A stretch of 64,000 nt of DNA from an uncultured Actinomycetota bacterium (lineage in GTDB: Bacteria; Actinomycetota; Actinomycetes; Mycobacteriales; Mycobacteriaceae): contig CAWIJT010000003.1 in the NCBI GenBank assembly GCA_963836495.1, positions 457,667-521,666 of the forward strand, in the 5' to 3' direction. Made by a program: the position numbers and the translations under genes. Of this stretch, positions 32,203 through 62,640 are shown in pieces (the stretch's first letter is position 1; each line of letters begins with the position of its first letter). Below the pieces are notes generated by a model. That model saw nothing but the letters and a program-made list of their open reading frames with translations. It ran no database searches and was not told the origin of the DNA.

Positions 32203-32877
32203 GTGAAAATCATTCCTAAGTTGGTGGTCTTCGGCCTAGTCGAGTTTGCTGTGTTCGGCTCGCTGCTATTTTTCCCAGCAGGCACGTTAAATTACTGGCA
32301 GGCATGGGTTTTTCTGGTGGTGGTTGCCCTTTGGGCGTGGATCCCGACCATTTACTTGCTGCGCACGAACCCCATTGCGCTTCAGAAGCGGATGCGTGGG
32401 GGGCCGACAGCGGAGGCCCGAATGGCGCAGAAGGTCGTTATTGCCGGCTTGTACTTGTCGCTGGCCGCAATGGTCGTAGTCAGCGCCCGCGACCATCGCT
32501 GTGGCTGGTCGCCGGTACCACCGGCGATCTGTCTGCTTGGTGATGTTCTGCTGGCCGCTGGATTGACTGTGGTGGCTCTGGTGATCATTCAGAACAGCTA
32601 TGCAGCGGCAACTGTCCGGGTGCAGACAGGCCAAAAGGTCGTCTCCACCGGTCTCTACGGGATGGTGCGGCACCCCATGTACACCGGCAATGTGATCATG
32701 ATGGTCGGCATTCCCCTTGCGCTCGGCTCCTACTGGGGACTCGTCTTCGTCGTGCCTGGCCTGATCGTGCTTGCCCTGCGTATCCGCGACGAGGAGAAGT
32801 TACTCCGCGAAGAGTTGAAGGGATACCGCGAATACACGCAGGAGGTTCGCTATCGCCTGATGCCACTGATGTGGTGA
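32203..32877 (+). CDS. Isoprenylcysteine carboxyl methyltransferase (ICMT/PEMT)-family membrane methyltransferase
   Basis: GTG 32203 after GAGGAGG; TGLYGMVRHPMYTG, RIRDEEKLL and YRLMP motifs. Confidence 0.85.
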   Translation: MKIIPKLVVFGLVEFAVFGSLLFFPAGTLNYWQAWVFLVVVALWAWIPTIYLLRTNPIALQKRMRGGPTAEARMAQKVVIAGLYLSLAAMVVVSARDHRCGWSPVPPAICLLGDVLLAAGLTVVALVIIQNSYAAATVRVQTGQKVVSTGLYGMVRHPMYTGNVIMMVGIPLALGSYWGLVFVVPGLIVLALRIRDEEKLLREELKGYREYTQEVRYRLMPLMW

Positions 32878-33035: not shown

Positions 33036-36000
33036 TCACTCTGTGGTTTCTTGTGCTGCTGTGGACTGTCTATTCAATTGCTGGCCGAGACTTTTTATGG
33101 TCGGCGCGTTGATGAGGGTGGGTAGCGCGAGGTGGGCGTCGAGGGCTGTGTTGATCGCGGCGATCGCCCGCATCGCCGAAAGCGAATCCCCGCCCAGATC
33201 GAAGAACGAATCTTCGACCCCAACTCGGTCGACACCCAGCACCTCGGCCCAGATGCCTGCCAGGACCTGCTCGATCAGCGTGGCCGGAGCGCGATATTCG
33301 CCGCCGTTGGCCTGGTGTCCGGGTGCCGAGATCGACGTGGTCAGCGGCTGGGCAAACAGCGCCTGATCGTCCCGCTCGTCTAGGTCTATCGATGACAATG
33401 GCTGCTTCGGATCACCGGCCATGGTCACCAACACCCGCTGAAAGCGCTCGATCAGCGCTTCGATGACGGGTGCGTTGAAAAAATCCGCGCGATACTGAAC
33501 TCGCAACTCCAGTTCGTTGCCAGGCACGGCCTGGATCGTCAGCGGGTAGTGGTAGTAGTCGCGGTTGGTGAGCCCGGTAACGACCAACCCGTCTGCGCCT
33601 GACAAGGCCGCTGCGTCGGTCGGGTAGTTCTCGTAGACGATAACGGTGTCGAACAGTCTTTCGTGACCGGTGGCGCGGTGGATGTCGCTGAGAGCCAGGT
33701 GCTGGTGTTCGAGGGTCTGATTGTGGTTGTTGTGGAGCTGGTTCAGTAGGTCGGTGGTGGTCGTCGCCGTGTCGATGGTGGCCCGTACCGGGACCGTGTT
33801 GATCAACAGCCCGATCATCGATTCCGCGCCGACCACCTCATCCGGGCGTCCCGAGACGACGGCGCCGAAGGCGACATCGTGATGGCCGGTCAGCCACATC
33901 AGCAGGGTTGCGAAGGCGCCCTGCAGCACGGTGTTGACGGTGGTGTGTGACGAGCGGGCCAACTCGGCAACCGCCCGGGTGGTGTGCTCGGACACCCAGA
34001 ACGACGCCACGTCTCGCGGTCCCACCCCTAACCGGTCTGGCGGGCCGATCAAGGTCGGGGTGTCAAAACCGGCCAGCACGTCACGCCACGCGGCGCGGGC
34101 GGCTTCGTGGTCCCGATCGGCCAGCCAGGTGATGAACTTGCGGTACGGCGCGGTCGCGGGTAGGCGCTGCCCGTAATAGCTGGCAAATACCTCCCGCAGC
34201 ATGTTTGGCAGTGACCAGCCGTCCAGCACGATGTGGTGATTCGTCAGTACAAACCGGTGCTGATCTTCTTCGGTGCGGATCAACGCCGCCCGGAAGGCGG
34301 GCTCGTCGGCGAGATTGAACACCGCGGCGCGTTCGGCGGCGCACACGCGCTGGATGTCCTCATCAAGGTCCCGGTCGCCTACGCTCAGATCGATAAATCG
34401 CCAGGGCGTCGTGGGATCGGCCGGGATGATCTGAACCGGCTGGTCAAACTGTTCGGAGAATCGGGCCGCTAGGTGTGGATGCCGGGTGACCACCGCATGT
34501 AGCGCGTCGCGGAGCCGGTGCTGATCAAGCCGACCGTTCAACGCGATATCCAGCTGCACTGCATACACATCGTCGCCACCAGCGTGCGCGGTGTTGGCGT
34601 GAAAAAGTAGCCCTCGCTGAAGGGGCGTCAACGGCAAAATATCGGCGATCTCATATTGCCGGCAAAGCTCGTCGATCTGCTGCTGGCTCAGCCGGGCGGG
34701 CGCGATATCCGACGGCGTCAACCCGCCACCACCCCGTCTGACGTATGCGCAGATTCCGGCCAGGGCTTCAAACCACAACCGACTCATCCGACTGACCTGC
34801 GCGTGATCGAGCGCCGACGGCGCCCATGTCCAGCCCGCCTGCAGGTGCGGGCCGGTGTCGGTATCGATGGTTCCGGCATTGAGCGCCACCGTGTGCATCA
34901 ACGGCATGGGGATAGCGGCGGCGACCCCGGTCACCGACGAAGCATCCTGACAAACCTGCCAAGCCTGACCAGATGCCGCGGCCGCCCCTGCACCCAGGCG
35001 CCCCAGGTAGTTGAACCCGATCACTGGATCGGATCCGGCCAGATCAACATCGGGGTTCAGATAACGCAGCAGACCGTAGGTCAACGGATCTGGCAGGGCG
35101 CGCAGCTGCTCTTTGGCGGCTTTGATCACCGCGCCCAAACCCGCATCACCGGCTACCACCTGCACCCATGACAGCCCGCCCACCGCCAACGCCACCGGAT
35201 ACTTGGTCGTGAACCATCCGACCGTGCGCGACAGGTCAACATCGGTGCCCAGCTCCTCTTGGCGACCGTGACCTTCCACATCGATACCGACCGGCGACGC
35301 GCCAGTCCCTAAAAACTCCGCCAGCGCCAACCCGAACGCGATCAACAAAATGTCGTGTATCCCGGCATGAAACGAGGTCGGCACTTCACCGAGCAGCATC
35401 TGGGTGGTCTCGGCATCGAGCAGCACCGACAATTGCCCCGCGCCCGCATAGGTATCCACCTCTGGACGCACCGCCGGCAGCGCGGGAGGAATTGCCGCGG
35501 CCTGCCGCCAGGCGTCGACCTGTTCCACTACTTCCCGGCGGGTTGCATGCTCAACCAACAACGACGCCCAGCGGGCAAATGACATCCCCGGCGCGGGCAG
35601 ATCCACCTGCTGCCCTCCACGATGCTGAGACCAGGCAATGTTGAGGTCCTCCAGGAGAATTCGCCATGACACCCCGTCGACGGCCAGGTGGTGAATGATC
35701 ACCACCAGCTGAGCCGTGGAGGTCGCCCACAGCGCGCTCAACATCACTCCCGCAGCCGGATTCAACCGCGAGCGTGCCGCCACCACCGCGTCGTCAGACA
35801 CCACGTCCACTGTTTGCAGGCACGCGCGCGCATCCACTGAACCGGCATCGGGCACCTGCAGCGACCAACCCCTGGCGCCGTCGTCCTCGACCCGCACCCG
35901 CAACATGGCATGCCGATCCAGTAAGGCCTGCAACAGCACCACTACGTCGGCCTCGGTTACCCCCGCGGGGGCCTGCAACAGCACAGTCTGGTTGAACTCG

Positions 36001-39000
36001 CCCACCGGGCCTCGTACGTCCCGCAACCAGCAGATGATCGGGGTCGCGGCCGCAGGCCCTACACCCTCGTCAATCACCTCGTTCGCATCGGTGGCCACGC
36101 CGGCGACCCGGGCCAGCCGGGCCACGGTCTGCTCCACGAAAATATCGCGCGGCCGGCAAAGCACCCCGGCGCCCCGCGCCCGGGCCACCACCTGCATCGA
36201 CAGGATGCTGTCCCCGCCCAACTCGAAGAAGGATTCGTCGACTCCGACCCGGTCTACGCCCAGGACCTGGGCGTAGATACCGGCCAGGATCTCCTCGATC
36301 GCGTCAGCGGGGGCGCGGTAGCGATCGAGGTCGTGGTATTCGGGCACCGGCAGGGCCCGGGTGTCGAGTTTGCCGTTGACCGTCAACGGCAACGCATCGA
36401 GCACCACCACCGCGGCCGGGACCATATAGGCCGGCAGCCGCTCGGCCAGCACCGCGCGCACCCCGGCCGCATCGGTGGCCCCGGTGACATAGCCCACCAG
36501 GCGCTTATCGCCGGGGCGGTCCTCGCGGGCGATCACCGCCGCCTGCCCCACCCCGTCGACGGCGATCAATGCGGCCTGGACTTCACCGAGCTCGATGCGA
36601 TACCCGCGGATCTTGACCTGCTCATCGGCCCGCCCCACATACCGCAGCTGCCCGTCGGCACCCCACCACACCAAATCCCCGGTGCGATACATCCGCGATC
36701 CCGGCGCCCCGAACGGACAGGCCACAAACCGCGAACCGGTCAACCCGGCCCGACCCACATAACCCACCGCCACCCCGGCACCGGCCACATACAACTCCCC
36801 CACCACACCCGCCGGCACCAACCGCAACCACCCATCCAGCACAACGAAGCCAAGGTGGGCCAGCGGCACCCCGATCGGGCTCACCGCGGCCTCGACATCG
36901 CCGGGCAGGATCTCCCGGAACGAGGCGTGCACTGTTGTCTCGGTGATGCCGTACATATTGATCAGTCGCGGTACGTCGGGATGGCTATCCCGCCAAGCCC
37001 TAAGACGTTGCGGCTCCAGCGCTTCACCGCCGAAAATCACCGCCTCCAGCGTGAGTCGACGGCCCAGCTCAGGCGCCAAGCTGTCGGCGGTTTGCAAGGC
37101 ATAAAACGCCGACGGGGTTTGACTTAAGACGCTGACCTGTTCAGCGACGAGCATGGCGTGGAAATCTTCCGGCGAGCGAACCACCGCATCGGGCACCAAT
37201 ACCAGCCGTCCACCATGGAGCAGCGCGCCAAAGATCTCCCACACCGAAAAGTCGAAGGCCAGCGAGTGCGCCTGCGTCCACACCTGCCCCGCCGCCAGCT
37301 CTACACCGGAATTCAGTGTCTGCAGCAGCACCGTCACGTTGCGGTGTGGAATGGCCACCCCTTTCGGGGTCCCGGTAGTGCCCGAGGTGTAGATCACATA
37401 AGCGATGTCATCCGGATTAGGCGGCGGCAGCGCGGTGCTGGGTTGGCCGGCGATGGCGCGATCCTCGACATCGATAACCACCACGTCCTGCCCGTTCAGG
37501 CGCGACCGCAACGCTGCGGTGGTGATGGCCGCGACCGGCGCGGCGTCCTCGAGGACGAACGCAATCCGGGCTTCGGGCACCGCCGGATCGATGGGCACAT
37601 ACGCGGCCCCGGTTTTGAGCACCGCAAAAATCGCCACGATCGCCTCAGCCGATCGGGGCAGCAGCAGCGCCACACGCCGCCCCGCCCCCACACCCCGCTC
37701 CATCAACGCATGCGCCAACCGGTTTGACGCCTCGTCTAGCTCCCGATACGTCCACGACAAGTCACCGCAGCTGATCGCCACCGCCCCCGCAGTCCACCCC
37801 ACCTGCGCGGCGAACAACTCCGGAATCGACACCGGCACCGGCGCGGGCTGGGTCAACACCGCCCGGTTACCCCACTTCTGCAACCGGGCGTGCTCGGTGT
37901 CATCGAGCACATCGATCGATGAGAGCCGGCGGGTGGGGTCGGTGGTCAGTGCCTCCACGACCCGCCGCAACCGGGTGATCAGGGTGTGGATGCTGGCGGT
38001 GTCGAAGACGTCGGTGCGAAATTCCACCGCCCCGCCGATCCCGGCGGGCTCACCGGTGGGGGTCCAGTGTTCGGCCAACGAAAACGACAGGTCCACTCGG
38101 GCGGTGTGGGTGTCGACCGGCAGCGGTGTGATGTCGAGATCACCCAGCGTCAACCCGGCGGCGGGATCGTTGTTGGTCTGCCAGTTCTGCCAGGCCAACA
38201 GCACCTGGACCAGCGGGTGATGGGTCAGGCTCCGGGCTGGGTTGAGCCGTTCGACCAGCAGCTCAAACGGCACGTCCTGATGCTCGTAGGCGGCCAGGCT
38301 GCGTGCCCGTACCTGGGCGAGCAGTTCGGCGACGGTGGGATCCCCGGCCACCTCGACCCGCAACACCAAGGTGTTGACGAAAAACCCGACGAGCTCATCG
38401 AGGGCGGGATCGCGCCGTCCGGCGATCGGGAAGCCCACTGCCACATCAGCGCTTGCGCTGAGTTTGGACAGCAGCACCGCCAGCGCGGCCTGGATCACCA
38501 TGAAACTGGTCGCGCTGTGCGCGCGGGCCAGCCGGGCAACCTGCTGCTGCACGTCGGCCGGCCAGTCCACTGTCACACTGGCGCCGCGCTGATCAGCCAC
38601 CGGCGGATAAGGCCGATCGGTGGGCAGCTGCAGCCGCTCGGGAATGCCGGTCAAGGCTTGCTGCCAGTAGCCGAGCTGCGCGGCGATGGGACTGTCGCTG
38701 TCGTTGACGTCGCCGAGTTGGGTGTGCTGCCACAGTGTGTAATCGACGTACTGCACCGCCAACGGTGACCAGTTGGGCGCTTGTCCGGTGCACCGGCTGG
38801 CATAGGCCACTGCCAGGTCGCGCACCAACGGGGTGATCGACCAGCCGTCGGCGGCAATGTGGTGCACCACGGCCACCAACACGTGCTCATCCTCGGCCAT
38901 GCGGAAAAGCCGAGCCCGCAACGGGATTTGGGCTGCCAGATCAAACGGGTCACGCGCCACGATGTCGATGGCCTCGCCCAGCCGGCCTTCGGTCCAACCG

Positions 39001-42000
39001 GCGGCATCCACGACGTCCCAACCAACCTCGGCCCGCTCGGCGGGCAATACCAGCTGCCGCGGTATCCCCTCGACCGCCGGGAACACCGTGCGCAGGCTCT
39101 CATGGCGGCTCACCACATCAGCCAGCGCCGCCCCCAATGCGTCGGCATCGAGGCGACCACGCAACCGCAACCCGACTGCCATGTTGTATACCGGCGAGGG
39201 CCCCTGTAACTGGTCGATGAACCACAACCGGTTCTGGGCGAACGACAACGGGACCACCGCGGGTCGCTCACGCGCCGCCACCGGCTCCCGCCGGCCCGCC
39301 TGCGCACCGATACGGGGCGCCAACTGGGCCACCGTCGGCGCCTCAAACAACGTCCGCACCGACAGGTCGGCATCCAAGCTGGTATTGACCGCCGCGACCA
39401 GACGCATCGCAGACAGCGAATCCCCGCCCAACTCGAAGAAGGATTCGTCGACTCCGACCCGGTCTACGCCCAGGACCTGGGCGTAGATACCGGCCAGGAT
39501 CTCCTCGATCGCGTCAGCGGGGGCGCGGTAGCGATCGAGGTCGTGGTATTCGGGCACCGGCAGGGCCCGGGTGTCGAGTTTGCCGTTGACCGTCAACGGC
39601 AACGCATCGAGCACCACCACCGCGGCCGGGACCATATAGGCCGGCAGCCGCTCGGCCAGCACCGCGCGTACCCCGGCCGCATCGGTGGTCCCGGTGACAT
39701 AGCCCACCAGGCGCTTATCGCCGGGGCGGTCCTCGCGGGCGATCACCGCCGCCTGCCCCACCCCGTCGACGGCGATCAATGCGGCCTGGACTTCACCGAG
39801 CTCGATGCGATACCCGCGGATCTTGACCTGCTCATCGGCCCGCCCCACATACCGCAGCTGCCCGTCGGCACCCCACCACACCAAATCCCCGGTGCGATAC
39901 ATCCGCGATCCCGGCGCCCCGAACGGGCAGGCCACAAACCGCGAACCGGTCAACCCGGCCCGACCCACATAACCCACCGCCACCCCGGCACCGGCCACAT
40001 ACAACTCCCCCACCACACCCGCCGGCACCAACCGCAACCACCCATCCAGCACAAACAATGCCGCCCCGGGCACCGGCGAACCGATCGGCACCACACCCGC
40101 GCCCGCCCTCAGGGGAGCGCTGATCGATGCATAAACCGTGGTCTCGGTGGGGCCGTAGCCGTTGATCATCACTCGCCCAGGCGCCCACCGATCTACCACT
40201 TCGGCCGGGCAGGGCTCAGCGGCGATCACCAGCGCCGCCGATTCCAAACCCTGAGATGAGAGCATCCCCACCGCCGACGGGGTTTGACTTAAGACGCTGA
40301 CCTGTTCAGCGACCAGCATGGCGTGGAAGTCCTCGGGTGAGGCCGCCACGGACTCGGGCACCACCACCAGGCGCCCACCATGCAACAGTGCGCCCCAGAT
40401 CTCCCATACCGAGTAGTCGAAGGCATACGAGTGGCACTGTGTCCACACCTGTCCAGGTCCGGGCGGCAGGCCGGCAGCCGGTGCGTCGAAAAGCCGGGTG
40501 ACGTTGTGGTGCGTGACGGCCACCCCCTTCGGCACCCCGGTGGTGCCCGAGGTGTAGATCAGGTAGGCGATGTCATCCGGCGCCGGCGCCGGCAGCGCGG
40601 TGCAAGGGTGATCGTCCACAGCGGGGTCATCGAGTTCGATGACCACCACGTCCTGCCCGTTCAGGCGCGACCGCAACGCTGCGGTGGTGATGGCCGCGAC
40701 CGGTGCGGCGTCCTCGAGGACGAACGCAATCCGGGCTTCGGGCACCGCCGGATCGATGGGCACATACGCGGCCCCGGTTTTGAGCACCGCCAAAATCGCC
40801 ACGATCGCCTCAGCCGACCGGGGCAGCAGCAGCGCCACTACATCGTCGGGACCTACGCCTTGGCCGGCTAATAGGTGCGCCAACCGGTTTGACGCCTCGT
40901 CTAGCTCGCGATACGTCCACGAGTGCTTACCCCCGCTCATCGCGACGGCTTGTGGGGCTTGGGCTACCTGCGCGGCGAACAACTCCGGAATCGACACCGG
41001 CACCGGCGCGGGCTGGGTCAACACCGCCCGGTTACCCCACTTCTGCAACCGGGCGTGCTCGGTGTCATCGAGCACATCGATCGATGAGAGCCGGCGGGTG
41101 GGGTCGGTGGTCAGTGCCTCCACGACCCGCCGCAACCGGGTGATCAGGGTGTGGATGCTGGCGGTGTCGAAGACGTCGGTGCGAAATTCCACCGCCCCGC
41201 CGATCCCGGCGGGCTCACCGGTGGGGGTCCAGTGTTCGGCCAACGAAAACGACAGGTCCACTCGGGCGGTGTGGGTGTCGACCGGCAGCGGTGTGATGTC
41301 GAGATCACCCAGCGTCAACCCGGCGGCGGGATCGTTGTTGGTCTGCCAGTTCTGCCAGGCCAACAGCACCTGGACCAGCGGGTGATGGGTCAGGCTCCGG
41401 GCTGGGTTGAGCCGTTCGACCAGCAGCTCAAACGGCACGTCCTGATGCTCGTAGGCGGCCAGGCTGCGTGCCCGTACCTGGGCGAGCAGTTCGGCGACGG
41501 TGGGATCCCCGGCCACCTCGACCCGCAACACCAAGGTGTTGACGAAAAACCCGACGAGCTCATCGAGGGCGGGATCGCGCCGTCCGGCGATCGGGAAGCC
41601 CACTGCCACATCAGCGCTTGCGCTGAGTTTGGACAGCAGCACCGCCAGCGCGGCCTGGATCACCATGAAACTGGTCGCGCTGTGCGCGCGGGCCAGCCGG
41701 GCAACCTGCTGCTGGACGTCGGCCGGCCAGTCCACTGTCACACTGGCGCCGCGCTGATCAGCCACCGGCGGATAAGGCCGATCGGTGGGCAGCTGCAGCC
41801 GCTCGGGCATGCCGGTCAAGGCTTGCTGCCAGTAGCCGAGCTGCGCGGCGATGGGACTGTCGCTGTCGTTGACGTCGCCGAGTTGGGTGTGCTGCCACAG
41901 TGTGTAATCGACGTACTGCACCGCCAACGGTGACCAGTTGGGCGCTTGTCCGGTGCACCGGCTGGCATAGGCCACTGCCAGGTCGCGCACCAACGGGGTG

Positions 42001-45000
42001 ATCGACCAGCCGTCGGCGGCAATGTGGTGCACCACGGCCACCAACACGTGCTCATCCTCGGCCATGCGGAAAAGCCGAGCCCGCAACGGGATTTGGGCTG
42101 CCAGATCAAACGGGTCACGCGCCACGATGTCGATGGCCTCGCCCAGCCGGCCTTCGGTCCAACCGGCGGCATCCACGACGTCCCAACCAACCTCGGCCCG
42201 CTCGGCGGGCAATACCAGCTGCCGCGGTATCCCCTCGACCGCCGGGAACACCGTGCGCAGGCTCTCATGGCGGCTCACCACATCAGCCAGCGCCGCGCCC
42301 AATGCGTCGGCATCGAGGCGACCACGCAACCGCAATCCGACTGCCATGTTGTATACCGGCGAGGGCCCCTGTAACTGGTCGATGAACCACAACCGGTTCT
42401 GGGCGAACGACAACGGGACCACCGCGGGTCGCTCACGCGCCGCCACCGGCTCCCGCCGGCCCGCCTGCGCACCGATACGGGGCGCCAACTGGGCCACCGT
42501 CGGCGCCTCAAACAACGTCCGCACCGACAGGTCGGCATCCAAGCTGGTATTGACCGCCGCGACCAGACGCATCGCAGACAGCGAATCCCCGCCCAACTCG
42601 AAGAAGGATTCGTCGACTCCGACCCGGTCTACGCCCAGGACCTGGGCGTAGATACCGGCCAGGATCTCCTCGATCGCGTCAGCGGGGGCGCGGTAGCGAT
42701 CGAGGTCGTGGTATTCGGGCACCGGCAGGGCCCGGGTGTCGAGTTTGCCGTTGACCGTCAACGGCAACGCATCGAGCACCACCACCGCGGCCGGGACCAT
42801 ATAGGCCGGCAGCCGCTCGGCCAGCACCGCGCGCACCCCGGCCGCATCGGTGGTCCCGGTGACATAGCCCACCAGGCGCTTATCGCCGGGGCGGTCCTCG
42901 CGGGCGATCACCGCCGCCTGCCCCACCCCGTCGACGGCGATCAATGCGGCCTGGACTTCACCGAGCTCGATGCGATACCCGCGGATCTTGACCTGCTCAT
43001 CGGCCCGCCCCACATACCGCAGCTGCCCATCGGCACCCCACCACACCAAATCCCCGGTGCGATACATCCGCGATCCCGGCGCCCCGAACGGGCAGGCCAC
43101 AAACCGCGAACCGGTCAACCCGGCCCGACCCACATAACCCACCGCCACCCCGGCACCGGCCACATACAACTCCCCCACCACACCCGCCGGCACCAACCGC
43201 AACCACCCATCCAGCACAACGAAGCCAAGGTGGGCCAGCGGCACCCCGATCGGGCTCACCGCGGCCTCGACATCGCCGGGCAGGATCTCCCGGAACGAGG
43301 CGTGCACTGTTGTCTCGGTGATGCCGTACATATTGATCAGTCGCGGTACGTCGGGATGGCTATCCCGCCAAGCCCTAAGACGTTGCGGCTCCAGCGCTTC
43401 ACCGCCGAAAATCACCGCCTCCAGCGTGAGTCGACGGCCCAGCTCAGGCGCCAAGCTGTCGGCGGTTTGCAAGGCATAAAACGCCGACGGGGTTTGACTT
43501 AAGACGCTGACCTGTTCAGCGACGAGCATGGCGTGGAAATCTTCCGGCGAGCGAACCACCGCATCGGGCACCAATACCAGCCGTCCACCATGGAGCAGCG
43601 CGCCAAAGATCTCCCACACCGAAAAGTCGAAGGCCAGCGAGTGCGCCTGCGTCCACACCTGCCCCGCCGCCAGCTCTACACCGGAATTCAGTGTCTGCAG
43701 CAGCACCGTCACGTTGCGGTGTGGAATGGCCACCCCTTTCGGGGTCCCGGTAGTGCCCGAGGTGTAGATCACATAAGCGATGTCATCCGGATTAGGCGGC
43801 GGCAGCGCGGTGCTGGGTTGGCCGGCGATGGCGCGATCCTCGACATCGATGACCACCACGTCCTGCCCGTCCAGGCGCGACCGCAACCCCGCGGTGGTGA
43901 TGGCCGCGACCGGCGCGGCGTCCTCGAGGACGAACGCAATCCGGGCTTCGGGCACCGCCGGATCGATGGGCACATACGCCGCCCCGGTTTTGAGCACCGC
44001 AAAAATCGCCACGATCGCCTCAGCCGACCGGGGCAGCAGCAGCGCCACACGCCGCCCCGCCCCCACACCCCGCTCCATCAACGCATGCGCCAACCGGTTT
44101 GACGCCTCGTCTAGCTCCCGATACGTCCACGACAAGTCACCGCAGCTGATCGCCACCGCCCCCGCAGTCCACCCCACCTGCGCGGCGAACAACTCCGGAA
44201 TCGACACCGGCACCGGCGCGGGCTGGGTCAACACCGCCCGGTTACCCCACTTCTGCAACCGGGCGTGCTCGGTGTCATCGAGCACATCGATCGATGAGAG
44301 CCGGCGGGTGGGGTCGGCGGTCATGGCGACGAGCAAACAGATGTATCGCTGGAACAGCGTCTGGATGCCGGCGGTGTCGAACACATCGGTGTCGAACTCG
44401 GCACGAAGGCCCAGCTCGGTCCCGGGCAGAGCTTGCACCGCAAGCGGGTAGTGGTTGTATTCGCGGTTGCTGAACTCGGTGATGGCCAGGCCATCGGCGC
44501 CCAACGGCGCGGCGGTGTCGATCGGGTAGTTCTCGTAGACGAAGAGGGTGTCGAACAGCTGTTCCTGACCGGCGATGCGGTGAATGTCGCTCAGTGCTAA
44601 ATGCTGGTGGTCGACGGTGTGGTTGTAGGCGCGGTGCAGTTGGTCGAGTAGCGCGGTGGTGGTGGTCGCCGGGGTGATAGTGGCCCGCACCGGCACTGTG
44701 TTGATAAGTAGGCCCACCATCGATTCCGCGCCGGGCACTTCGGCGGGCCGCCCGGAGACTGTTGTACCGAAGGCGACGTCATGGTGACCAGTCAACCGGC
44801 ACAGCAGTTGCGCGAAGGCGCTCTGCAGCACGATGTTGACGGTGGTGTGCGATGAGCGCGCCAGCTCGCTGACCGCGCGGGTGGTCTGCTCGGGCACGCG
44901 GAACGATGCCACGCCTCGCCGCCCCGGCTCCGACCGTTCTGGTGGACCCACCAAGGTGGGGGTGTCAAGACCGGACAGCACCTCACCCCAGGCCGCGTGG

Positions 45001-45551
45001 GCGGCATCACGATCTCGACTGGCCAGCCAGGAGACGAACCTGCGGTAGGGGACTGGAACAGGGAGACGCTCGTTGTAGTAGCAGGCAAATATTTCTCGTA
45101 GCAGGATCGGCAGTGACCAACCGTCCATCACGATGTGGTGATTCGTCAGTACAAACCGGTGCCGATCGTCCTCGACCCGGATCAACGCGGCCCGAAAAGC
45201 AGGCTGGTTGGCTAGATCGCAGACTGCGGCACGCTCAGCGGCGCACACCCGCTGAATCTGCTCAGGGAAACCGTCGGCGTCCAGTTCGACGTACTGCCAC
45301 GGTGTGACGGGATCGGCCGGGATGATCTGTACGGGCTGGTCAAACTTTTCAGAGAATCGAGCAACCAAGTGCGGATGCCGGGCCACCACCGCCTGCACCG
45401 CATCCCGCAGCCGGTGCTGATCAAGCCGACCGCTCAGCGTGATGTCCAACTGCACGGCATACAGATCGTCGTCGCTGCCCTGAGACGTGCTGGCGTGGAA
45501 CAGGAGCCCCTGCTGCAACGGGGTCAGCGGCAATACGTCAGCGATCCGCAT
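33036..45551 (-). CDS. NRPS, C-A-T-C-A-T-C-A-T-E-C-T (Mps2/PstB-like N-terminus)
   Basis: ATG 45551 ([15 protein letters not shown]); C motifs HHIVMDG, HHIAADG x2 and HHIVLDG; three YTSGTTG A domains; T motifs GGDSLSAM x2, GGDSILSM before E (HHLAVDG), and terminal GGDSLSAM; no TE or reductase. Confidence 0.93.
36210..44316. repeat. Near-identical intragenic NRPS duplications
   Basis: 36210..37941 matches 42585..44316 (offset 6375), and 37801..40053 matches 40966..43218 (offset 3165), with only scattered substitutions. Confidence 0.92.
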
Positions 45552-48500
45552 ACAACCGCTCAAGCTCGTCGATCTGCTGCTGGCTCAACTGAGCAAGCGC
45601 GAGATCCGACGGCGTCAACCCGCCCCCACCGTGGCGCACGTGCGCACAGATCCCGGAAAGGGCGTCAAACCACAACCGGCCCAGCCGGCTGACCTGTGCG
45701 TGATCCAGCGCCGACGGCGCCCACCACCAGGCAGCGCGCAGGTACGAGCCGGTATCGGTATCGATTATGCCGGCGTTGAGTTCCACGGTGTGCGCCAACG
45801 GCATGGGCTCCCTCACGGTGGCGTCGATAGTCGACAAGCCGTCCAGGCTGATCCGCCACCCATCATCGGATTCGCCCGCCGCGGCGCCTAGCCGCCCCAA
45901 GTAGTTGAATCCAATCGGTGGGTCGGACCCCGCTAAGTCGACATCGGGATTCATATAACGCAGTAACCCATAGGTCAGAGGCTCAGGCAGGGCGCGGAGC
46001 TGCTCTTTGGCGTCCTTGATCAGCCCCCCCAACCCTGCATCGCCGGCCACCACCTGTGCCCAGGACAGGCCGCCGACCGCCAACGCCACCGGGTATTTGG
46101 TGGTGAACCAACCCACGGTGCGCGATAGGTCAACATCGGGTCCGAGCTCATCGTGGCGCCCGTGGCCCTCCACGTCGATGCCGATCGGCGCGCCGCCCGT
46201 GCCCAAGAACTCCGCACACGCCAAGGCGAACGCGATCAGCAAAATCTCCTGGACGCCAGCGTGAAACGCCGCGGGTACCTCACCCAAAAGAATGCGGGTT
46301 GTCTCCGCATCCAATGCCATCGAGAGCTTCCCGAAGCTGGCATAGGTATCCACCTCAGGGCGCAGCGCCGGCAACGCCGCCGGTGTCGCCGCCACCTGCC
46401 GCCACACCGGTGCCTGCTGCACGACGTCCGGGCGGCTCGCGTGCTCGGTCAGCAGCTCCGACCAGCGGGCAAACGACGTCCCCGGCGGCGGTAACACCAC
46501 CTGCTGCCCCTGGTGGTGCTGGGCCCAGGCGATGTTGAGATCTTCCAGCAGGATCCGCCACGACACCCCGTCGACGGACAAATGGTGCACTATCGACACC
46601 AGCTGGCGGGTGGAGGCCACCCACACCGCGCTGATCATGACCCCGTCGGCAGGGTTCAACCGCGAACCTGCCGCTATGACGGCCTCATCAGTCAACACGT
46701 CCACGGAGTCCAGGCAGTCGCGGGCATGCACCGAACCGGGCTCGGGCACGTGCAGTACCCAACCGCCGACGCCGTCGTCCTCGGCGCGCAGCCGCAGCAT
46801 GGCGTGGCGATCCAGTAGGGCCTGCAACACCACCACCACATCGGCCTCGGTCACCCCCGCGGGGGCCTGCACCACCGTGGTCTGGTTGAAGTGCTCGACC
46901 GGGCCGTCAACGCTTGCCAGCCAACGCATGATCGGGGTCGCGACCACCGGCCCAATGCCCTCATCGACCTGGGTGATCGCACCTTCGGCCACTCCGGCCA
47001 GCCGTGCCACGGTCTGCTCGACGAAGATGTCGCGCGGCCGAAACACCAGGCCGGCCGCCCGCGCTCGCGCCACCACTTGCATCGACAGGATGCTGTCGCC
47101 GCCGAGTTCGAAGAAGGAATCGTCGACCCCGACCCGCTCCAGGCCCAAGACCTGGGCGTAGATGCCGGTCAGGATCTCTTCGATCGCGTCGGCCGGGGGG
47201 CGGTAGTTGTCCGCGTCCAGAAATTCCGGCGCCGGCAGGGCGCGGGTGTCGAGTTTGCCGTTGACCGTCAGCGGCAACGCATCGATCGCCACCACCGCGG
47301 CCGGCACCATGTAGCCCGGGAGTCCCTCAGCGAGGGCGGCGCGCGCCGCGGCCGGATCCGCTGTCCCGGTGACATAGCCGACCAGCCGTTTGTCGCCGGG
47401 CCGGTCCTCGCGGGCGATCACCACCGCCTGCTGCACGCCGTCCAGCCCGGCCAGCGCGGCCTGGACCTCGCCGAGCTCGATGCGATGACCGCGGATCTTG
47501 ACCTGCTGGTCGGCGCGCCCCATGTAGCGCAGCTGCCCGTCGGCGCCCCACCACGCCAGGTCGCCGGTGCGATACATACGCGCTCCGGGTGGGCCGTACG
47601 GGCAGGCGACAAACCGGGTGCCGGTCAACCCTGATCGGCCCACATATCCATAGGCGGTCCCGGCGCCGGCCACGTAGAGCTCGCCGACCACGCCGGCGGG
47701 CACCGGCTGCAGCCAGGCATCGAGCACGAAGAACCCGAGATGTGCCAACGGCACCCCGATCGGACTGGCAGTGCTGTCGACATCGCCCGCGAGGATCTCC
47801 CGGAACGAGGCATGCACTGTCGTCTCGGTGATGCCGTACATGTTGATCAGGCGGGGTAATCCCGGATGGTTGTTCAGCCATGGTCGAAGACGCTGCGGCT
47901 CCAAGGCCTCACCACCGAACACCACCACCCCGAGCTTGAGCTGACGGCCCATTTCGGGTTGTAGCGCGGCGGCGCTTTGCAGCGCGTAAAACGCCGACGG
48001 GGTCTGGCTCAACACGCTGACCTCTTCGGCCACCAGCAAGGCATGGAACTCTTCCGGCGAGCGGACAACCGGGTCGGGCACCACCACGAGCCGCCCGCCG
48101 TAGAGCAACGCGCCCCAGATCTCCCACACCGAGAAGTCGAACGCCAACGAGTGACACTGCGACCACACCTGCCCGGTCAGCTCCAGGTCGGCATCCAGGG
48201 TCTCCAGCAGCCGCGTCACGTTGTGGTGCGGAATGGCAACCCCTTTCGGGGTGCCGGTCGTGCCCGAGGTGTAGATGAGGTACGCGATGTCATCCGCGGA
48301 TGGCGTCGGTAGTGCTGTGTCTAGGCGATTATCGTCGGCGTCTTCGTCGACGGCGATGACGGTCAGGTCGTGCCCGTCCAATCGCGACCGGAACTCGGCG
48401 GTGGTGATCGCAACGATCGGCGCGGCATCACCGAGCACGAACTCGATCCGGGCCGCCGGCACCGCCGGGTCGATCGGCACATACGCAGCCCCGGTTTTCA

Positions 48501-50085
48501 GCACCGCCAACATCGCCACGACGGCCTCAGCCGAGCGCGACAACAGCAGCGCCACCCGCTGCCCCGGGCCCACACCCTGGTGGGCCAACACCTGCGCCAA
48601 CCGGTCAGCGGCCTGCTCGACCTCGCGGTAGGTCCACGAGCGTTCCCCGGCGCTGATTGCCACCGCCTCCGGGGCGCGGGCCACCTGCGCAGCGAACACC
48701 GCCGGAATCGACACCGGCGCCGTTTGCGGTTGGGTCAACACCGCCCGGTTGCCCCAGTCATCCAGCCCGGCGTGCTCATCGGCATCGAGCAGATCCATCG
48801 ACGAAAGCCGCCGGCCCGGGTCAGCGGTCATCGCGACCAACAGCCGCCCCAAACGCCTCGCGATGTCCGAGACGTCGTAATTCGACAATGGCCCGTCGGC
48901 GCCGGCGGTGCTGAGGAAAAGCTGGTCACCGGCGCCGGAGAAGATCAACCCGAAGTCGCCCACTTGTCCAGGATTGGTGAATGACGCCGACGCCTCGACA
49001 CCGGCGAAGTCCATTGTCATTTTCGACGGCATGAAGTTGACGCTCACCCTGGCACCCGGGTGCTCGGTGCTGTTGGGATGGGCCTTGCGCTGCAGGGCGT
49101 GTACCGGAAACCGCTGGTGCTGCAAGGCTTCCCGTATCCGGGTGTCGACATGCCCGCAAAAATCGGCAACCGTAGCTGCCGGCGAAACCCGCAGGACCAG
49201 CGGCACCGCCCCGGAAATCATCCCGGGCAGCGTCTTCAATTCCGGGCGTACCCGCCTGCTGACCGGGAAGTCGAGCACCACCTCTGAGCCCTCGGCGCAC
49301 CACCCACGCACCAGAAGTGCACACGCCGCGGTGAGGATCGATGATCGAGGCATGTTCCATGCGTCGGACAACTCTTGGACTTGGCGAAGGACCGCGGAGT
49401 CCAGTCGAACCGGCGCGGAGGGCGAATGAGGCTCTCCATCACGAGCGGTGTGCGGTTGCCGATAACGCGGTTCGCTTTCCGGCGGAAGGTTCCTCGTCCA
49501 ATATGCTTCGTCGTCCAGATATTCAGCGGACGCTTCGTATTCCGACTCGCAGCGAATCAACTCCTGCAAGGAGCCGAAGAATGGAGGCGGAATCGGTGTG
49601 TCAGAAACAATGGCGGCGTAGACGGTGGCAATTCGGTGGGCGATAAGCGTAATTCCGGATCCGTCGATGACAATATGATGGAAGCATCCGAACAGATAGA
49701 ATTCGTCGACCCACGTTTGAAACAGTGCAAATGTGAACAACGGGCCAGTCGGCGGCATTGGCGTGGACTGGATTGATGCTGCTATCTCGCGTGCTTCCTG
49801 CACGGGATGACGCGATTCGCTCAGGTCATGGAAGGCGATGTCGAACTCTGGATCGCCCGCCCGTTGGAAAACCTGGCCATCAACGTCGAAGATCGCGGCC
49901 CTGGCCGGCTCGGCCTCCCGCATCACGTGACGGATCGCCTGCTCGATCAGATCGCGCTTCACCGTACCGTCGAATCGCACCAGCACACCCAGTTGCCAGT
50001 CCGTCCCGGCGTGACCGGTTTCCTGCGCAAGCCAGATGTCTAGTTGTCCCCGCGTCAGCGGAAGTGTGTGGTCATCAAAATCCAT
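45538..50085 (-). CDS. Starter NRPS, C(starter)-A-T-E (Mps1/PstA-like but single module)
   Basis: [17 protein letters not shown] starter-C N-terminus typical of GPL Mps1, HHIVIDG, Thr-type A domain, GGDSILSM, E domain HHLSVDG. Confidence 0.93.
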
Positions 50086-51350: not shown

Positions 51351-54300
51351 CTATTCGGATGCATCGGCGAACTCCGCGCCGCCCGACTCCGGCACCTGAC
51401 CGGCCAGATACTCGGCGAGCGACCCGATTGTCGGGTAGTCGAACACCGCGGTCGCGCTGATCGTGAACGCGCCACCGAACTGGGGGACCAACCGGTTGCT
51501 GAATTCGACCGCCATCAGCGAATCCGTACCCAGTTCCAGGAACCGGCTGGTTGCCGCCGGCGGTTGCGCGAGCCGCAGGAAATTCTGTACTTCGTGCCGC
51601 AGGTACTCGGTGAGGAAACTGCCGCGCTCCACTTCGGGTACCTCGTGCAGCTGCCGGAGCAACTCGCTGTCGCCGCGGGACGCCGTGCCCGCGCTCGGCA
51701 GCACATGGTCGAGAATCGCTGGGCGGGAGACGCCCAACCCGCCCTTCGCGGCGCGCTGCCAATTGGCTTTGATGACGGTCGCCTGCCCGATTCCGTGGGC
51801 GACAATCGCGTCGAGCGCGTTGAGCGCGGCCGTGGGTTCCAGTGGAATCAGGCCTTGCGCACTGAGATTGGCGCGCGCCGCATGCGAGGTGGCCATGCCG
51901 CCCTTTGCCCAGGGGCCCCAGTTGATGCTGGTCGCGGGCAGCCCGCGCGCCTCGCGGTCCGCAGCGAGCCCGTCCAGCAGCGCATTGGCGGTCGCGTAAT
52001 TGGCTTGGCCGGGTGACCCGAGCACGCTGGAAGCCGAGGAGTACACGATGAAGAACTCGAGATCATCGTTCTTCGTCAACCGATGTAAGTGCCAGGCACC
52101 CAGCGCCTTTGGCGACAAGCTGGTCCGGAAACTGTCCAGGCTCTGCTGCGGTAGCAGCGCGTCGTCGAGCACGCCCGCGAGATGTGCCACCCCCGCGAGC
52201 GGCGGCAACTCCGCCCGGATCCGCTCCAGCAACGCTGTCACCTGCGCCTCGTCGCCCACGTCGGCCACGAAGGTGTGGATCCGGCACCGGTAGCGCTCGG
52301 TGATGTCGGCGATTTCCCGTTGCGCGTCCGCATCGGGCATCCGCCGACTGGTCAACACGATGTCACCGGCCCCGAGTTGGGCCAGATGAGCGGCCGTGAA
52401 CAGGCCCAATGCGCCGAGGCCGCCGGTGATCAGGTAGCTCCGGTCACTCTGCGGCTGAAGCGGTTTCGGCATCTGCAGCACGATCTTGCCGATATGGCGC
52501 GCCTGCTGCATGCGGCGGAACGCGGTCTTGGCCTCCGTCAGCGGGTAGACCTCGACGGCGAGTGGCCGCAGCTCGCCGCTGCCCATGCTGTCGGCCAGTT
52601 CGGCTAGCAGTTCCCCAACCCGGTCGGGATCTTCGGCGATGGTCGCGTCCAGCGCGATGATCTCGTAGGCGATGTCGGGACGGACCGCCGCCATCTGGTC
52701 AGGTGTCCAGATGTCGCGCTTGGCGATTTCGGCGAACCGGCCGCCCTGCGCGGTCGCCCGCACGGTCGCGGCGATGAACCCGTCATTGGTCAGGCTGTTG
52801 AGCACGACGTCGACGCCGGCGCCCCCGGTGTCGGCCAGGATCTGATCCGCGAAATCTGTACTGCGCGAGTCGTAGACGTGCTCCACGCCCATCTTGCGCA
52901 GCGTCGCACGTTTGTAGGTGCTGGCGGTGGCGAAGACGGTCGCGCCGCGCTGCTGGGCGATCTGGATCGCGGCCAGACCCACACCGCCGCTGGCGGCGTG
53001 GATGAGCACACGATCACCGGGCCCCACCTGCGCCCAGTCGAACGCAAGCCGGGTGGTGAGCGCCCCAGCGGGGATGGTCGCCGCTCCCACTGCGCTCACC
53101 CCGTTCGGCAACGGCGACAGGAACTGAGCGGGCACGTTGACCCGGGTGGTGAAGCACCCTTGCATGAAGCCGAAGACGCGCTGGCCGACCTCGAATCCGC
53201 TGACCCCGGAACCGACTTCGGTGACGATGCCGGAGAGGTCACCACCGATCAGGCCCGGATCACCCGGATACAAGCCGAGCACATTGAGCACATCCCGGAA
53301 GTTCAGGCCCGCGGCCTCCACCCGGATCTGCACCTGGCCCGCGGCCGGCGGCAGCACCTCCGTCTCGGCCAGGCGCAGGTTGTCGATCGCGCCGCGCTCG
53401 GTCGGCTCCAGGATGTAGTCGCCTGCGCGGGGTACCGGGAGGTGGCCGCTACGTGCCCAGGGCAGTAGCCGCGGCACTAAGTACTTCCCTTGTCGCAGTG
53501 CGAGTTCGGGCTCATCAGCGGGTGCGCCGAGCAGGCCGGCCAGCAATGGCGCGGCATCATCGAAGCTGTCGCAGTCGACCAGCCGGCAACGCAAGGCCGG
53601 CTGCTCGGTGATGACGGTTCGTCCGAAACCCCACAGCGCCGATTGCACGGGGTCGACCGGCTCGCCGGGTTCGGTCGCGACGGCCCGCTCGGTGACGATG
53701 CAGAGTCCGCCGGGGAGTTTCACGTCTTGCTGCGCCTGCAGCGTCTGCACCAAGGCGAGGAGCTGGTCGATCTCGCTCTCCAGCCGCGCGGAGAAGGCCG
53801 TGCTCGACTCTTCTTCGCCGGGCCGCGCGGTGCTTCGCCAGACGACGCCGGAGACCGGGGCGCCGCGCTCCTCGGCGTGGGCGAACAGTTGCTGCCAGGA
53901 CTTCGGATTCGCCGCGATCGAGGCACGGTCGACTGCGACAGCACCCGGGTGGTCGGCGACCAGCTCGTCGAATCCGGCAATCAGCACGGTGCCGTCGCCG
54001 TTACCGACGGTGCTGCCGGACGCCGGTGCCGGTACCTCCTGCCAGCCCAGGGTGTAGAGATTCCGGGTAGCGTCGCCGCCGAGTCCGCGCAGCAGCGCCT
54101 CGCGGGGCGCGCGTTTGACGGTGAACTCGCGAATTTCTCCCAGCTGGCGGCCGTCCCGGTCTACGAAATCCAGGTCGAAGACCTGTGTTTCGCTGTCGGG
54201 ACCGCCGGTCTGCCACCGCGCGCGGCAGTAGAACCGCCGTGGCAACCGCTCACGCAGCACCACCCGCCCGTATCGCAATGGCAAGAACAGGTCGGGCGCT

Positions 54301-60300: not shown

Positions 60301-62372
60301 TCGGCGGCGGCGAAGATCGCGACCATTCGACCGCCCGCGGGCAAACTGCCGAACAGGCGGCCGCGCTCGGCCATCAACAGGGCGCCGTCTTCAAGGCTGA
60401 ACACGCCCGCGACGCAGGCCGCCGAATACTGGCCGACGCTGTGGCCGAGCACCACGTCGGGCTCGAATCCCCAGGACTGCCAGAGCCGGGCCAGGCCCAT
60501 CTCCACCGCGAACAACGCGGGCTGAGCGTAGGAGGTCTGCCGCAGCGTCTCTTCGCAGTCCGGACTATCGGTATCGAAAATGACGTCCAGCAAAGGTCTT
60601 TCGAGAACGTCGGCAACCACCGCCGCGCAACGGGCCAATGTTTCGGCGAACACCGGTTCGGTCTCGAACAACTCGCGCGCCATGCCGGCGTACTGGCTGC
60701 CCTGACCGGTGAACAACCACGCGGTCCTCGGCCTGTCGGCGCACTCACCCCGGACCAAACCCGGCGACGGGCGATCGTCGGCAAGCGCGCGAAGTACCTC
60801 GCGCGCGGATTCCGTCGAGTTCACCACCAGTGCGGCCCGGTGCTCGAGGTGCGATCGGCCGACCCCGGCGGTGTAGCACACGTCGGCCAACGAGGCGTCG
60901 GGGTGGGCGGCTAGCCAACTGCCGTAGCTCTCAGCGAGCTCCGCGAGCGCGGCCGGGCTGCGCGCGGAGAGCGGCAACACGCTGAAGCGCCGGTCGTCAG
61001 AGGGCGCCGCCGGTGCCGCCGCAACCTGGCCCACCGCCTCGGGCGCTTCCTCGATGATGACGTGCGCGTTGGTCCCGGAGAACCCGAACGAACTGACCCC
61101 GGCAATGCGGGGGCGTCCGTCGCGTGCCCACGGGAGGGCCTCGTCCACGACCCGCACCGCGAGCCGATCCCACGGAATGTGCGGCGACGGCTTCTGGAAG
61201 TTCAGGTGCTTGGGGAGCTCTTCGTGCTCGAGCGACAGGATGACCTTGATCAGGCCCGCGATCCCCGCGGCGGCCTCCAGATGCCCGATGTTGGTTTTGA
61301 CGGAACCGATCAGCAGCGGCCGGTCCGCGTCGCGCTCGGTGCCGTAAGCCGCGCCAGCGGCTTGGACTTCGATCGGATCGCCCAGCGACGTTCCCGTTCC
61401 GTGCGCCTCGAGATAGCCGACATCGCGGGCTGCGACACCCGCGGACTGCAGCGCCTCGTTGATGACGCGTTGTTGGGCGACGCCGTTCGGCACCGTCAGA
61501 CCACCCGATGCGCCGTCCTGGTTGATCGCGCTGCCGCGGATCACCGCCCGGATCCGGTCACCGTCGCGGATCGCGTCCTCGAGGCGTTTGACGACGACGA
61601 CACCGCAGCCCTCGCCACGCACGTAGCCGTCGGCGGCCGCGTCGAATGTCTTGCACTTGCCGTCCGGAGCCAGCATGTGCGCGTGCGAGAAGGTCATCGC
61701 GGTCTTTGCGCTGAGCAGCACGTTCACGCCACCTGCCAGCGCGAGGTCGCACTCGCCGTAACGCAGCGCCTGGCAGGCCTGGTGAATTGCCACCAGCGAC
61801 GAGCTGCACGCCGTGTCGACGGTGACCGCCGGACCCTGCAGCCCCAGCCCGTAACTGATCCGGCCGGCTCCTGCGGCGGCGGACGTGCCGATCGCCACGT
61901 ACGCCTCGATCTCGGCGTAGGTCAGTTGTTCGGAGATCAATCCCAGGTAGTCGTGGGTGCCCAGACCCACGAACACACCGGTCTTGGTGTTCGCCAGGGC
62001 CGACGGCGCGGTGCCGGAATGCTCGACTGCCCGCCATGCCGTCTCCAGCAACAGCCGATGCTGCGGGTCGATCAACATCGTCTCCCGCTTCGAGAGCCCG
62101 AAGAACGGCGCGTCGAACCCCGCTACGTCATCGATGAAGCCGGCCCGGCGGGACACGATCTTCCCGGGCGCATCGGGATTCGGGTCGAAGAATTCCTCGA
62201 CATCCCACCGGTCGGCAGGCACCTCGGAGACCGCATCCCGCCCTTGCTGCAGCACCTCCCAGAACTCGTCCGCATCAGCGGCGCCCGGAACGCGCAGCGC
62301 ATAGCCGACTACCGCGAACGCCCCGCCGATCCCCTGTGATTCATGTGCCCGCGTGGATGTCTCGGTTGTCAA
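51351..62372 (-). CDS. pks: Bimodular type I PKS, KS-AT-KR-ACP-KS-AT-DH-ER-KR-ACP (GPL-associated pks type)
   Basis: Probable TTG 62372; KS DTACSSS and DTACSAS; ATs GHSVG/HAFH (malonyl); KR1 without LDD, KR2 with LDD; [12 protein letters not shown]; [10 protein letters not shown]; ACPs GMDSL and GTDSL. Confidence 0.92.
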
Positions 62373-62640
62373 GGCGCGTGTCCTCTCTGCGCTCGGGTTT
62401 TCAATCGGTCTGGTGGGCGCCTGGGCCCTGGTCACCGCTCGGCGCGGCATCTGGAATGGGCGGCTGGATCCGTCGAATTGCCGTTGCGGTCTGTGCGCGG
62501 TCGGCTTCGCCGTATAGCACCCGCCAATTGGGTGGGACATTGGCGAAGGCTGGTCACAAGCTGTGTTACTCCTCGTCGTTGAGAAGAGCGGCAAAAGTGC
62601 CGCTGTCGTCGTAGAGCGGCATGCCCCGGCCGCCTATCCG

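Follow-up and report, generated by a model that had tools for sequence, protein, structure and literature searches.

An adenylation-less condensation-thiolation ending paired with an ICMT-family methyltransferase gene, a candidate chain-termination module of mycobacterial lipopeptide synthetases

Introduction

Chain release is the least varied step of non-ribosomal peptide synthesis, as it is nearly always performed by a thioesterase (TE), a reductase (R) or a terminal condensation (C) domain of the non-ribosomal peptide synthetase (NRPS). Here we analyse the end of NRPS2, a 4175-residue synthetase encoded in a 64,000-nucleotide stretch of DNA (hereafter the window) from an uncultured Actinomycetota bacterium of the Mycobacteriaceae (assembly GCA_963836495.1, contig CAWIJT010000003.1, positions 457,667 to 521,666 of the forward strand). 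The protein finishes with an epimerisation (E) domain, a C domain and a thiolation (T, or carrier) domain, with no adenylation (A) domain in its last module, and a gene for a methyltransferase of the ICMT/Ste14 family lies next to its stop codon. In our view, the evidence tips slightly towards this E-C-T ending being a functional chain-termination module of the polyketide synthase (PKS)/NRPS systems that make (glyco)lipopeptides in the Mycobacteriaceae, one that would off-load D-epimerised chains selectively before their carboxyl group is methylated.

The closest described modules by domain content are the A-less C-T modules whose carrier is loaded in trans, namely module 9 of SyrE, served by SyrB1 and SyrC, and the A-less module of the ramoplanin and enduracidin synthetases. 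Like NRPS2, these are otherwise canonical NRPSs with a C-T module devoid of an A domain. However, the SyrE and ramoplanin-type modules add a residue that is retained, possess a dedicated A-T loader (plus a shuttle enzyme in the Syr system) and are followed by further modules or a TE, whereas in the family of NRPS2 no loader is conserved, the module is the last one, and no residue is added in the characterised member. Condensation-type release is also known elsewhere, through hydrolysis by CroK-C2, macrocyclisation by fungal CT domains and amine capture by VibH-type domains. In these systems too, the assembly line is closed by a domain of the condensation fold in place of a TE or R domain, but that domain is placed last and acts on the upstream T domain, whereas in the NRPS2 family a conserved carrier follows it. 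Finally, the Mps1/Mps2 synthetases of Mycobacterium smegmatis, M. avium and M. abscessus share with NRPS2 their nature of mycobacterial lipopeptide NRPSs, E domains, a D-allo-Thr glycosylation site and related C domains; they differ in that Mps2 ends in C-A-T-R and releases alaninol by reduction, without a C-T end, an ICMT gene or a methyl ester.

C-terminal methyl esters do occur in mycobacterial peptidolipids, for example in the serine-type glycopeptidolipid of M. xenopi and in fortuitine. Another instance is the L5P lipopeptide of M. avium subsp. paratuberculosis (PMC8103206).

Domain organisation of NRPS2 and of its last module

The elements at the end of NRPS2, together with the neighbouring methyltransferase gene, are as follows.

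33036..45563, minus strand: NRPS2, 4175 aa, organised as C-A-T, C-A-T, C-A-T-E, C-T according to Pfam and motif positions
34689..36086, minus strand: module-4 E domain (HHLAVDG at aa 3291), directly upstream of C5
33399..34646, minus strand: terminal C domain (C5), aa 3640-4055, Pfam Condensation, assigned to the DCL type
33297..33398, minus strand: scar linker between C5 and T5, 34 aa, site of the excised A domain
33078..33296, minus strand: terminal T domain (T5), aa 4090-4162, fourth PP-binding stretch in Pfam
33036..33077, minus strand: C-terminal tail of 13 aa and stop codon (33036-33038, from the translation)
32203..32877, plus strand: integral-membrane methyltransferase of the ICMT/Ste14 family, 224 aa, convergent with NRPS2

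Pfam detects five Condensation-family, three AMP-binding and four PP-binding stretches in NRPS2, and no match to thioesterase or reductase families anywhere in the protein. Motif positions agree with this count: HHxxxDG is found at aa 142, 1179, 2234, 3291 (the E domain) and 3776, GGDS motifs begin at aa 991, 2046, 3116 and 4124, and SGTTGxPKG is confined to aa 602, 1672 and 2727. The last module is not a complete C-A-T module, with only 34 residues and no A domain between C5 and T5, and the stop codon comes 13 residues after T5 without the TE or R domain of a canonical termination module. Both catalytic elements are present, namely HHIVLDG in C5 (aa 3776-3782, nt 34218-34238) and GGDSLSAM in T5, whose phosphopantetheine-bearing serine is aa 4127 (nt 33183-33185). 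The original prediction, which had described an A-less C-T end at 33036-34650 with intact HHIVLDG and T motifs behind an E domain and without TE or R, is thus borne out by Pfam and by motif positions. The GC content of the region is about 65%.

We assign C5 to the DCL subtype on the basis of its HHxxxDG motif, the E domain upstream of it and its resemblance to C domains that follow E domains. For example, C5 is 69% identical to the first C domain of NRPS2, which is preceded by the E domain of NRPS1 (the synthetase encoded immediately upstream).

The linker between C5 and T5 starts with LSSID and ends with YRAPA, which are the usual C-A linker start and the usual A-T linker end, respectively, in the three complete modules of NRPS2. 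Among orthologues, linker length ranges from 24 to 49 residues. As the longest linkers (49 aa) retain both edges of a full module, the second one being SAPEYHDNGDGYRAPAT, the A core was cleanly removed in a common ancestor, and the excision is an ancient, single event common to the whole family. The linker of the window is shorter than that of long-linker relatives by a further 10-15 residues or so. That LSSID is joined to YRAPA by a clean excision had been proposed beforehand, and the full-module edges in the same protein and in relatives confirm it.

Conservation of the ending in the Mycobacteriaceae

Relatives were collected by a protein search with the last 554 residues of NRPS2 and by a scan of one genome per species, of which the best 80 loci were kept (M. 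avium is not among them); two loci were added through their encoding contigs. Forty-five loci match through both the C and the T domains and form the terminal-type set, which represents 44 distinct places as two of them (L002 and L010) lie on the same contig. The remaining 37 loci, matched solely through internal C domains, served as a comparison set.

The protein search returned more than 100 proteins that are 60-78% identical to the query over about 99% of its length, with a Pfam content restricted to Condensation and PP-binding, and every named match is mycobacterial. All 44 other terminal-type loci end in E-C-T followed by a stop codon 10-40 residues after T, with the E domain directly before the terminal C domain (44/44), and in none of these 44 relatives is there a release domain after T. 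The last A domain carries a Thr-like code, D[FY]WSVG[ML]VHK, in 32 of the 38 readable loci. HHxxxDG and the T5 carrier serine are invariant in the 43 sequences that were aligned. In close species pairs, dN/dS is 0.08-0.18 for C5, 0.02-0.10 for T5 and 0.2-1.3 (near neutral) for the linker, against 0.00-0.07 for T4 and 0.12-0.16 for E as controls in the same pairs, dS being compressed by GC3 bias so that these ratios are meaningful as relative values only. Both domains of the module, C and T, are intact and evolve under purifying selection; the module is selected as well as ancient.

These data leave very little room for the module being a relic or an artefact, either the decaying remains of a full C-A-T-R/TE module or the result of assembly errors between the repeated modules, in a cluster without a product, which we regard as extremely improbable. 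Near-identical repeated modules, such as those of NRPS2, could mislead an assembler, and the public soil-metagenome contigs that we found are short low-depth fragments, none of which cleanly spans the linker. However, exact contigs from these other runs cross the end of the T domain, the stop codon and the 3' end of the ICMT gene, the reading frame is intact, catalytic residues are invariant in a module under purifying selection, and a family member with the same ending makes an isolated product (PMC11978893). The original prediction had considered that the module might be decaying, that its junction might be mis-assembled, or that close relatives might possess a complete C-A-T-R/TE module, and it had called for the conservation and dN/dS of the C-T end to be checked in homologues. 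This check shows conservation and purifying selection: decay is refuted by the 44 other loci, the invariant catalytic residues and dN/dS values like those of neighbouring functional domains, mis-assembly by the recurrence of the junction in 44 independent assemblies of other species, and the complete module by the E-C-T-stop ending of all 44 relatives.

Terminal C domains also stand apart from internal ones. For 43 of the 45 terminal C domains, the closest sequence is again that of a terminal C domain, and terminal C domains are 68% identical to each other versus 65.5% to internal DCL domains. Six signature positions distinguish them from internal DCL domains (V281, V353, D381, Y383, Q402 and R404, in the numbering of the 554-residue C-T query): five are invariant and the sixth is found in 89% of terminal C domains, while all six residues are rare (at most 11%) in internal C domains.

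Such substitutions suggest a changed function, and would suit a model in which C5 releases the chain directly to water or to an alcohol, T5 having a purely docking or structural role, such as opening the acceptor side of C5 or keeping the synthetase at membrane machinery. Release to water or amines by a C domain at the end of the line has precedents in other systems (CroK-C2, VibH-type), and the tails that many slow-grower orthologues carry after T, ending in EEVPAVSPASDL or in EEVPVIPDL, look docking-like. Nevertheless, we consider this model distinctly unlikely: the T5 serine is invariant in 43 of 43 sequences and its dN/dS is as low as that of a working carrier, neither of which is expected of a domain that is only structural, and the tail is not family-wide, being different and shorter in the window and in rapid growers. 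Since the carrier serine is strictly conserved, we argue for a covalent role of T5, and this conservation would favour either an exit carrier, as in the termination module proposed here, or else a carrier for a transient extra residue (see below).

As a separate observation, the tail shared by many slow-grower orthologues reads SVEEVPAVSPASDL or EEVPVIPDL immediately before the stop codon, while the tail in the window is different and shorter. The slow-grower tail could be a docking peptide.

An ICMT-type methyltransferase accompanies the C-T end

The methyltransferase gene of the window is convergent with NRPS2, and the two stop codons are 158 nt apart. Its product exceeds the Pfam cut-offs for PEMT (46.8 bits, cut-off 25), ICMT (39.9 bits, cut-off 24) and ERG4_ERG24, and matches the NCBIfam isoprenylcysteine O-methyltransferase model weakly. 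An alignment with 4A2N, the ICMT structure from Methanosarcina, covers residues 30-213, among them the RHPMY motif and the EE region. The protein therefore shares with Ste14/ICMT its Pfam family and a near full-length alignment with RHPxY...EE, and presumably the esterification of the alpha-carboxylate of a lipid-anchored peptide with S-adenosylmethionine (SAM). They differ in their substrates, a prenylated protein for Ste14/ICMT and, as we presume, a non-ribosomal lipopeptide for the window enzyme.

Of the 44 relatives, 40 possess an ICMT-like gene no more than 1.3 kb from the stop codon of the C-T end, against none of the 37 loci matched solely through internal C domains. The gene is mostly convergent with the NRPS gene, with a gap of -26 to +215 nt, and co-directional in three loci. 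The Mycobacteroides loci have it in the same direction as the NRPS gene, and on contig L085 there is a 4-nt overlap with the NRPS stop. The original prediction described the domains correctly but missed both this gene at the stop codon and the link to methyl-ester lipopeptides.

A few loci have an additional gene at this place. In L030, a metagenome-assembled genome of the Mycobacteriaceae, a gene for a Ste24-like M48 CAAX prenyl protease (11647-12879) is located between the NRPS stop and the ICMT-like gene; it is the only such gene beside a C-T end among the 44 loci. Ste24 and ICMT are enzyme families that process prenylated proteins in eukaryotes. In three rapid growers (L023, L032 and L033), a gene on the minus strand (about 11600-12570) encodes a predicted metal-dependent hydrolase of family PF10118 (311-319 aa) before the ICMT-like gene, which is a candidate release or trimming enzyme. 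A conserved release hydrolase was sought across the 44 loci, and these three PF10118 genes and the single M48 gene were all that was found.

In the window, the ICMT gene is adjoined by a gene (31156-32076, minus strand) for a secreted-looking, Gly/Ala/Asp/Thr-rich repeat protein of 306 aa, which has no family match. A homologue 43% identical to it is encoded after the ICMT gene in L003, the closest relative.

The GL8P synthetase of M. abscessus belongs to the family

A member of this family has a known product. The GL8P locus of M. abscessus comprises MAB_4691c (8108 aa), MAB_4690c (2716 aa, PstA), MAB_4689c (230 aa, hypothetical), MAB_4688 (147 aa) and then a TetR regulator (PMC11978893, Data S1). 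Two of our loci correspond to it. L022 (Mycobacteroides sp. CBMA271) encodes a 2711-residue orthologue of MAB_4690c organised as A-T-C-A-T-E-C-T, followed on the same strand by a 230-residue ICMT gene. L084 (M. salmoniphilum) encodes proteins of 8135 and 2719 residues, then the ICMT protein, a 147-residue protein and a TetR regulator, and its 2719-residue protein is also organised as A-T-C-A-T-E-C-T. The order TetR, 147-residue gene, ICMT-like gene of about 230 residues and NRPSs of about 2716 and 8100 residues is that of MAB_4687 to MAB_4691c. MAB_4689c, listed as a conserved hypothetical protein, is an ICMT-family methyltransferase. A TE is absent from the Pfam matches of the L022 orthologue, and the L084 orthologue has no TE-type GxSxG motif.

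The published cloning and complementation primers encode the ends of MAB_4690c, which begins with VKADAT and finishes with STSAR and the stop (PMC11978893). The L084 protein begins with VKADAT, and an NRPS fragment in L085 ends with GGNSLGAMRVVAAIN, then QQLESTSAR and the stop, which is a C-T end (L085 is assigned to M. abscessus by its match to the published reverse primer alone). From this agreement of the primer-encoded ends with the L084 start and the L085 C-T end, we conclude by sequence comparison that MAB_4690c, too, finishes in C-T.

GL8P is N-acyl-Thr-Ala-Phe-Ile-Tyr(OMe)-Leu-Thr-Thr, with eight modules for eight residues; its four E domains predict D residues at positions 1, 3, 6 and 8, and by Marfey's analysis allo-Thr, Leu and Phe have the D configuration (PMC11978893). 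Thr-8 carries a rhamnose and, at the C-terminal, a carboxymethyl group (PMC11978893). The formula reported for GL8Pa, C71H116N8O18, corresponds on our calculation to the methyl ester and not to the free acid. As each of the eight A domains accounts for one residue, nothing contributed by the C-T pair is retained in GL8P; the peptide ends with the D-residue that comes from the final A-T-E module, a D-allo-Thr methyl ester.

The GL8P synthetase and NRPS2 share the A(Thr)-T-E-C-T-stop ending followed by an ICMT-family gene, a Thr-like last A code and glycosyltransferases in both clusters, and their terminal C-T regions are 61-63% identical. They differ in that GL8P is built by eight modules on a plain fatty acyl chain, whereas the window cluster has four A domains and a two-module PKS, and in that Mycobacteroides has the ICMT gene in the same direction as the NRPS gene, overlapping its stop, whereas the window has it convergent. 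The GL8P paper draws a Te in a figure legend, and discusses neither the C-T end nor MAB_4689c (PMC11978893).

Given the pairing of the two genes in 40 of the 44 relatives and the methyl ester of GL8P, we propose that the lipopeptide carboxylate is the substrate that is methylated, and that the ICMT-like enzyme most likely makes the C-terminal methyl ester of the product.

A proposed route of chain termination

In the termination route that we favour, C5, as a DCL-type domain, would accept solely the epimerised (D) peptidyl chain from T4 and move it to the phosphopantetheine thiol of T5, or directly to water, with no retained amino acid added. The thioester would then be hydrolysed to the free acid, and the ICMT-like enzyme would methylate with SAM the C-terminal carboxylate of the lipopeptide, embedded in the membrane. 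One proposal of the original prediction, condensation of the chain onto an external acceptor, comes closest to this evidence, with the difference that the acceptor would most likely be water (possibly via the T thiol) instead of a building block.

Several points weigh against this route. We know of no precedent for a C domain upstream of a T domain passing its chain to a thiol or to water. A hydrolase or thioesterase beside the module is not conserved among the 44 loci, and therefore the step that frees the carboxylate has no assigned enzyme. C5 has diverged little from elongating DCL domains (about 65% identity to them, versus 68% among terminal C domains) and T5 resembles an ordinary loadable carrier, both of which fit ordinary elongation too. 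The activity of the ICMT-like enzyme on lipopeptides is presumed. Finally, the Te annotated in the GL8P figure legend conflicts with our reading of the orthologues (PMC11978893), and the C-T end of M. abscessus is known from a contig that matches the reverse primer, not from the reference sequence.

Ordinary elongation underlies the most serious competing model, in which T5 would be aminoacylated, by the neighbouring Thr A domain in cis or by a free A protein in trans, and C5 would form a peptide bond with this transient residue; the n+1 peptide would then be released, trimmed by a peptidase and methylated at its new C-terminus, in analogy to CAAX processing by Ste24/Rce1 and Ste14. The likeness of C5 to elongating DCL domains, which nearly equals that to its own orthologues, its retained HHxxxDG and the strong constraint on T5, similar to loadable T domains, are all consistent with such a cycle, as are the M48 gene of L030, the PF10118 genes of L023, L032 and L033, and the presence in the window of a free A protein (27048-28673) and a small carrier 4-8 kb away. 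We nevertheless hold this model to be rather unlikely. Neither an A domain nor a peptidase is conserved near the C-T end, hydrolase genes being found in four of 44 loci; all relatives lack, within 10 kb, anything equivalent to the free A and carrier set of the window; GL8P carries no extra residue; and more steps and unseen enzymes are needed than for direct off-loading. Trans loading of the last T domain, which had also been put forward in the original prediction, is likewise unsupported as a general mechanism, as no free A is conserved near the C-T end of relatives and the eight A domains of GL8P match its eight residues.

Our literature searches retrieved no description of an E-C-T end without release domain coupled to a Ste14-like methyltransferase, and nothing relevant on ICMT-type enzymes in the formation of NRPS methyl esters. 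Whether the E-C-T ending and the ICMT-like enzyme constitute a previously unrecognised two-part termination of non-ribosomal peptides, with a DCL domain as an epimer-selective off-loader, an exit carrier or water as acceptor and a Ste14-like methyl-ester cap, is a proposition to which we give a little less than an even chance. If true, it would account for the methyl esters that mycobacterial peptidolipids have long been known to carry at their C-terminus, and the gene pair offers a testable origin for them. At least 44 mycobacterial species, including the M. abscessus complex, use an ending without TE, R or terminal release C domain. The pair gives MAB_4689c and its relatives a predicted function, and provides a genomic signature predicting D-residue methyl-ester ends, usually D-allo-Thr-OMe. 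The lipid concerned in M. abscessus, GL8P, promotes uptake and growth in the host.

The M. fortuitum locus (L001) was considered as a possible fortuitine cluster. Its last two A codes are Thr and Thr, which do not fit the ...Ala-Pro-OMe end of fortuitine, so L001 is probably not the fortuitine cluster.

The surrounding cluster and its predicted product

The other biosynthetic genes to which we refer are listed below.

45538..50085, minus strand: NRPS1, C(starter)-A-T-E, whose stop overlaps the NRPS2 start
50458-51762, minus strand: open reading frame (ORF) of a class-I methyltransferase (domain at aa 240-350), overlapping in a different frame the 3' end of the PKS gene, whose stop lies at 51351
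51351..62594, minus strand: two-module PKS, KS-AT-KR-ACP-KS-AT-DH-ER-KR-ACP
62792-63946, minus strand: glycosyltransferase, upstream of the PKS
27048-28673: free-standing amino-acid adenylation protein, 4-8 kb from the C-T end
about 24938-25180, minus strand: small carrier protein, 4-8 kb from the C-T end

The PKS, NRPS1 and NRPS2 make up one colinear assembly line for a lipopeptide, which contains four A domains and for which the PKS would supply the lipid chain. The A codes are DFWSVGMVHK (Thr-like) in NRPS1, and DFWSIGMVHK (Thr-like), DYWSVAGVYK (unassigned) and DFWSIGMVHK (Thr-like) in NRPS2, as read from pairwise alignment to one template, with the Thr assignment anchored solely by positions 7 and 8 of GL8P. 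We predict that this line makes a PKS-derived acyl-D-allo-Thr-L-Thr-X-D-allo-Thr methyl ester, which would probably be glycosylated. The true start of the class-I methyltransferase probably lies downstream of the PKS stop. No MbtH-like protein and no MmpL/MmpS were seen among the scanned ORFs of the window, in which no search was aimed at them, and the cluster may extend past position 64000.

NRPS2 is markedly repetitive. Its modules 1, 2 and 3 (36101-44646) share stretches of at least 300 nt that are 98-100% identical, at a spacing of 3165-3210 nt, and modules 1 and 3 are nearly identical in DNA, with A domains that share 99.7% protein identity. The repetition also concerns positions 46986-48636 in NRPS1. 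The repeats of NRPS2 look like the outcome of recent intragenic duplication or gene conversion. Because of such near-identical modules, the NRPS genes of relatives are often fragmented in assemblies.

A second gene set lies between 13829 and 30883. It encodes an aminotransferase, an FAD/NAD-binding protein, an ATP-grasp amino-acid ligase, a homoserine O-succinyltransferase (HTS), a Cys/Met-type PLP enzyme, fused alpha/beta hydrolases of the exosortase A-associated hydr1/hydr2 types, a P450, a PhyH protein, an F420-dependent LLM oxidoreductase, a methyltransferase and an F390-synthetase/PaaK-like ligase, and it includes the free A protein and the small carrier listed above. The free A protein (27048-28673) was considered as a trans loader of T5 of the SyrB1/SyrC type and was set aside, having no counterpart within 10 kb in relatives. 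The other downstream genes of the window are likewise not seen near the C-T end in relatives. As no gene of this set is located within 10 kb of the C-T ends of relatives, we treat the 13.8-31 kb set as a separate cluster.

Further to the left of the biosynthetic region, an IS481-family transposase and a DUF222 protein of the 13E12-repeat type are encoded at 7606-8784 and 10296-11663, which suggests that these two genes mark a mobile-element boundary.

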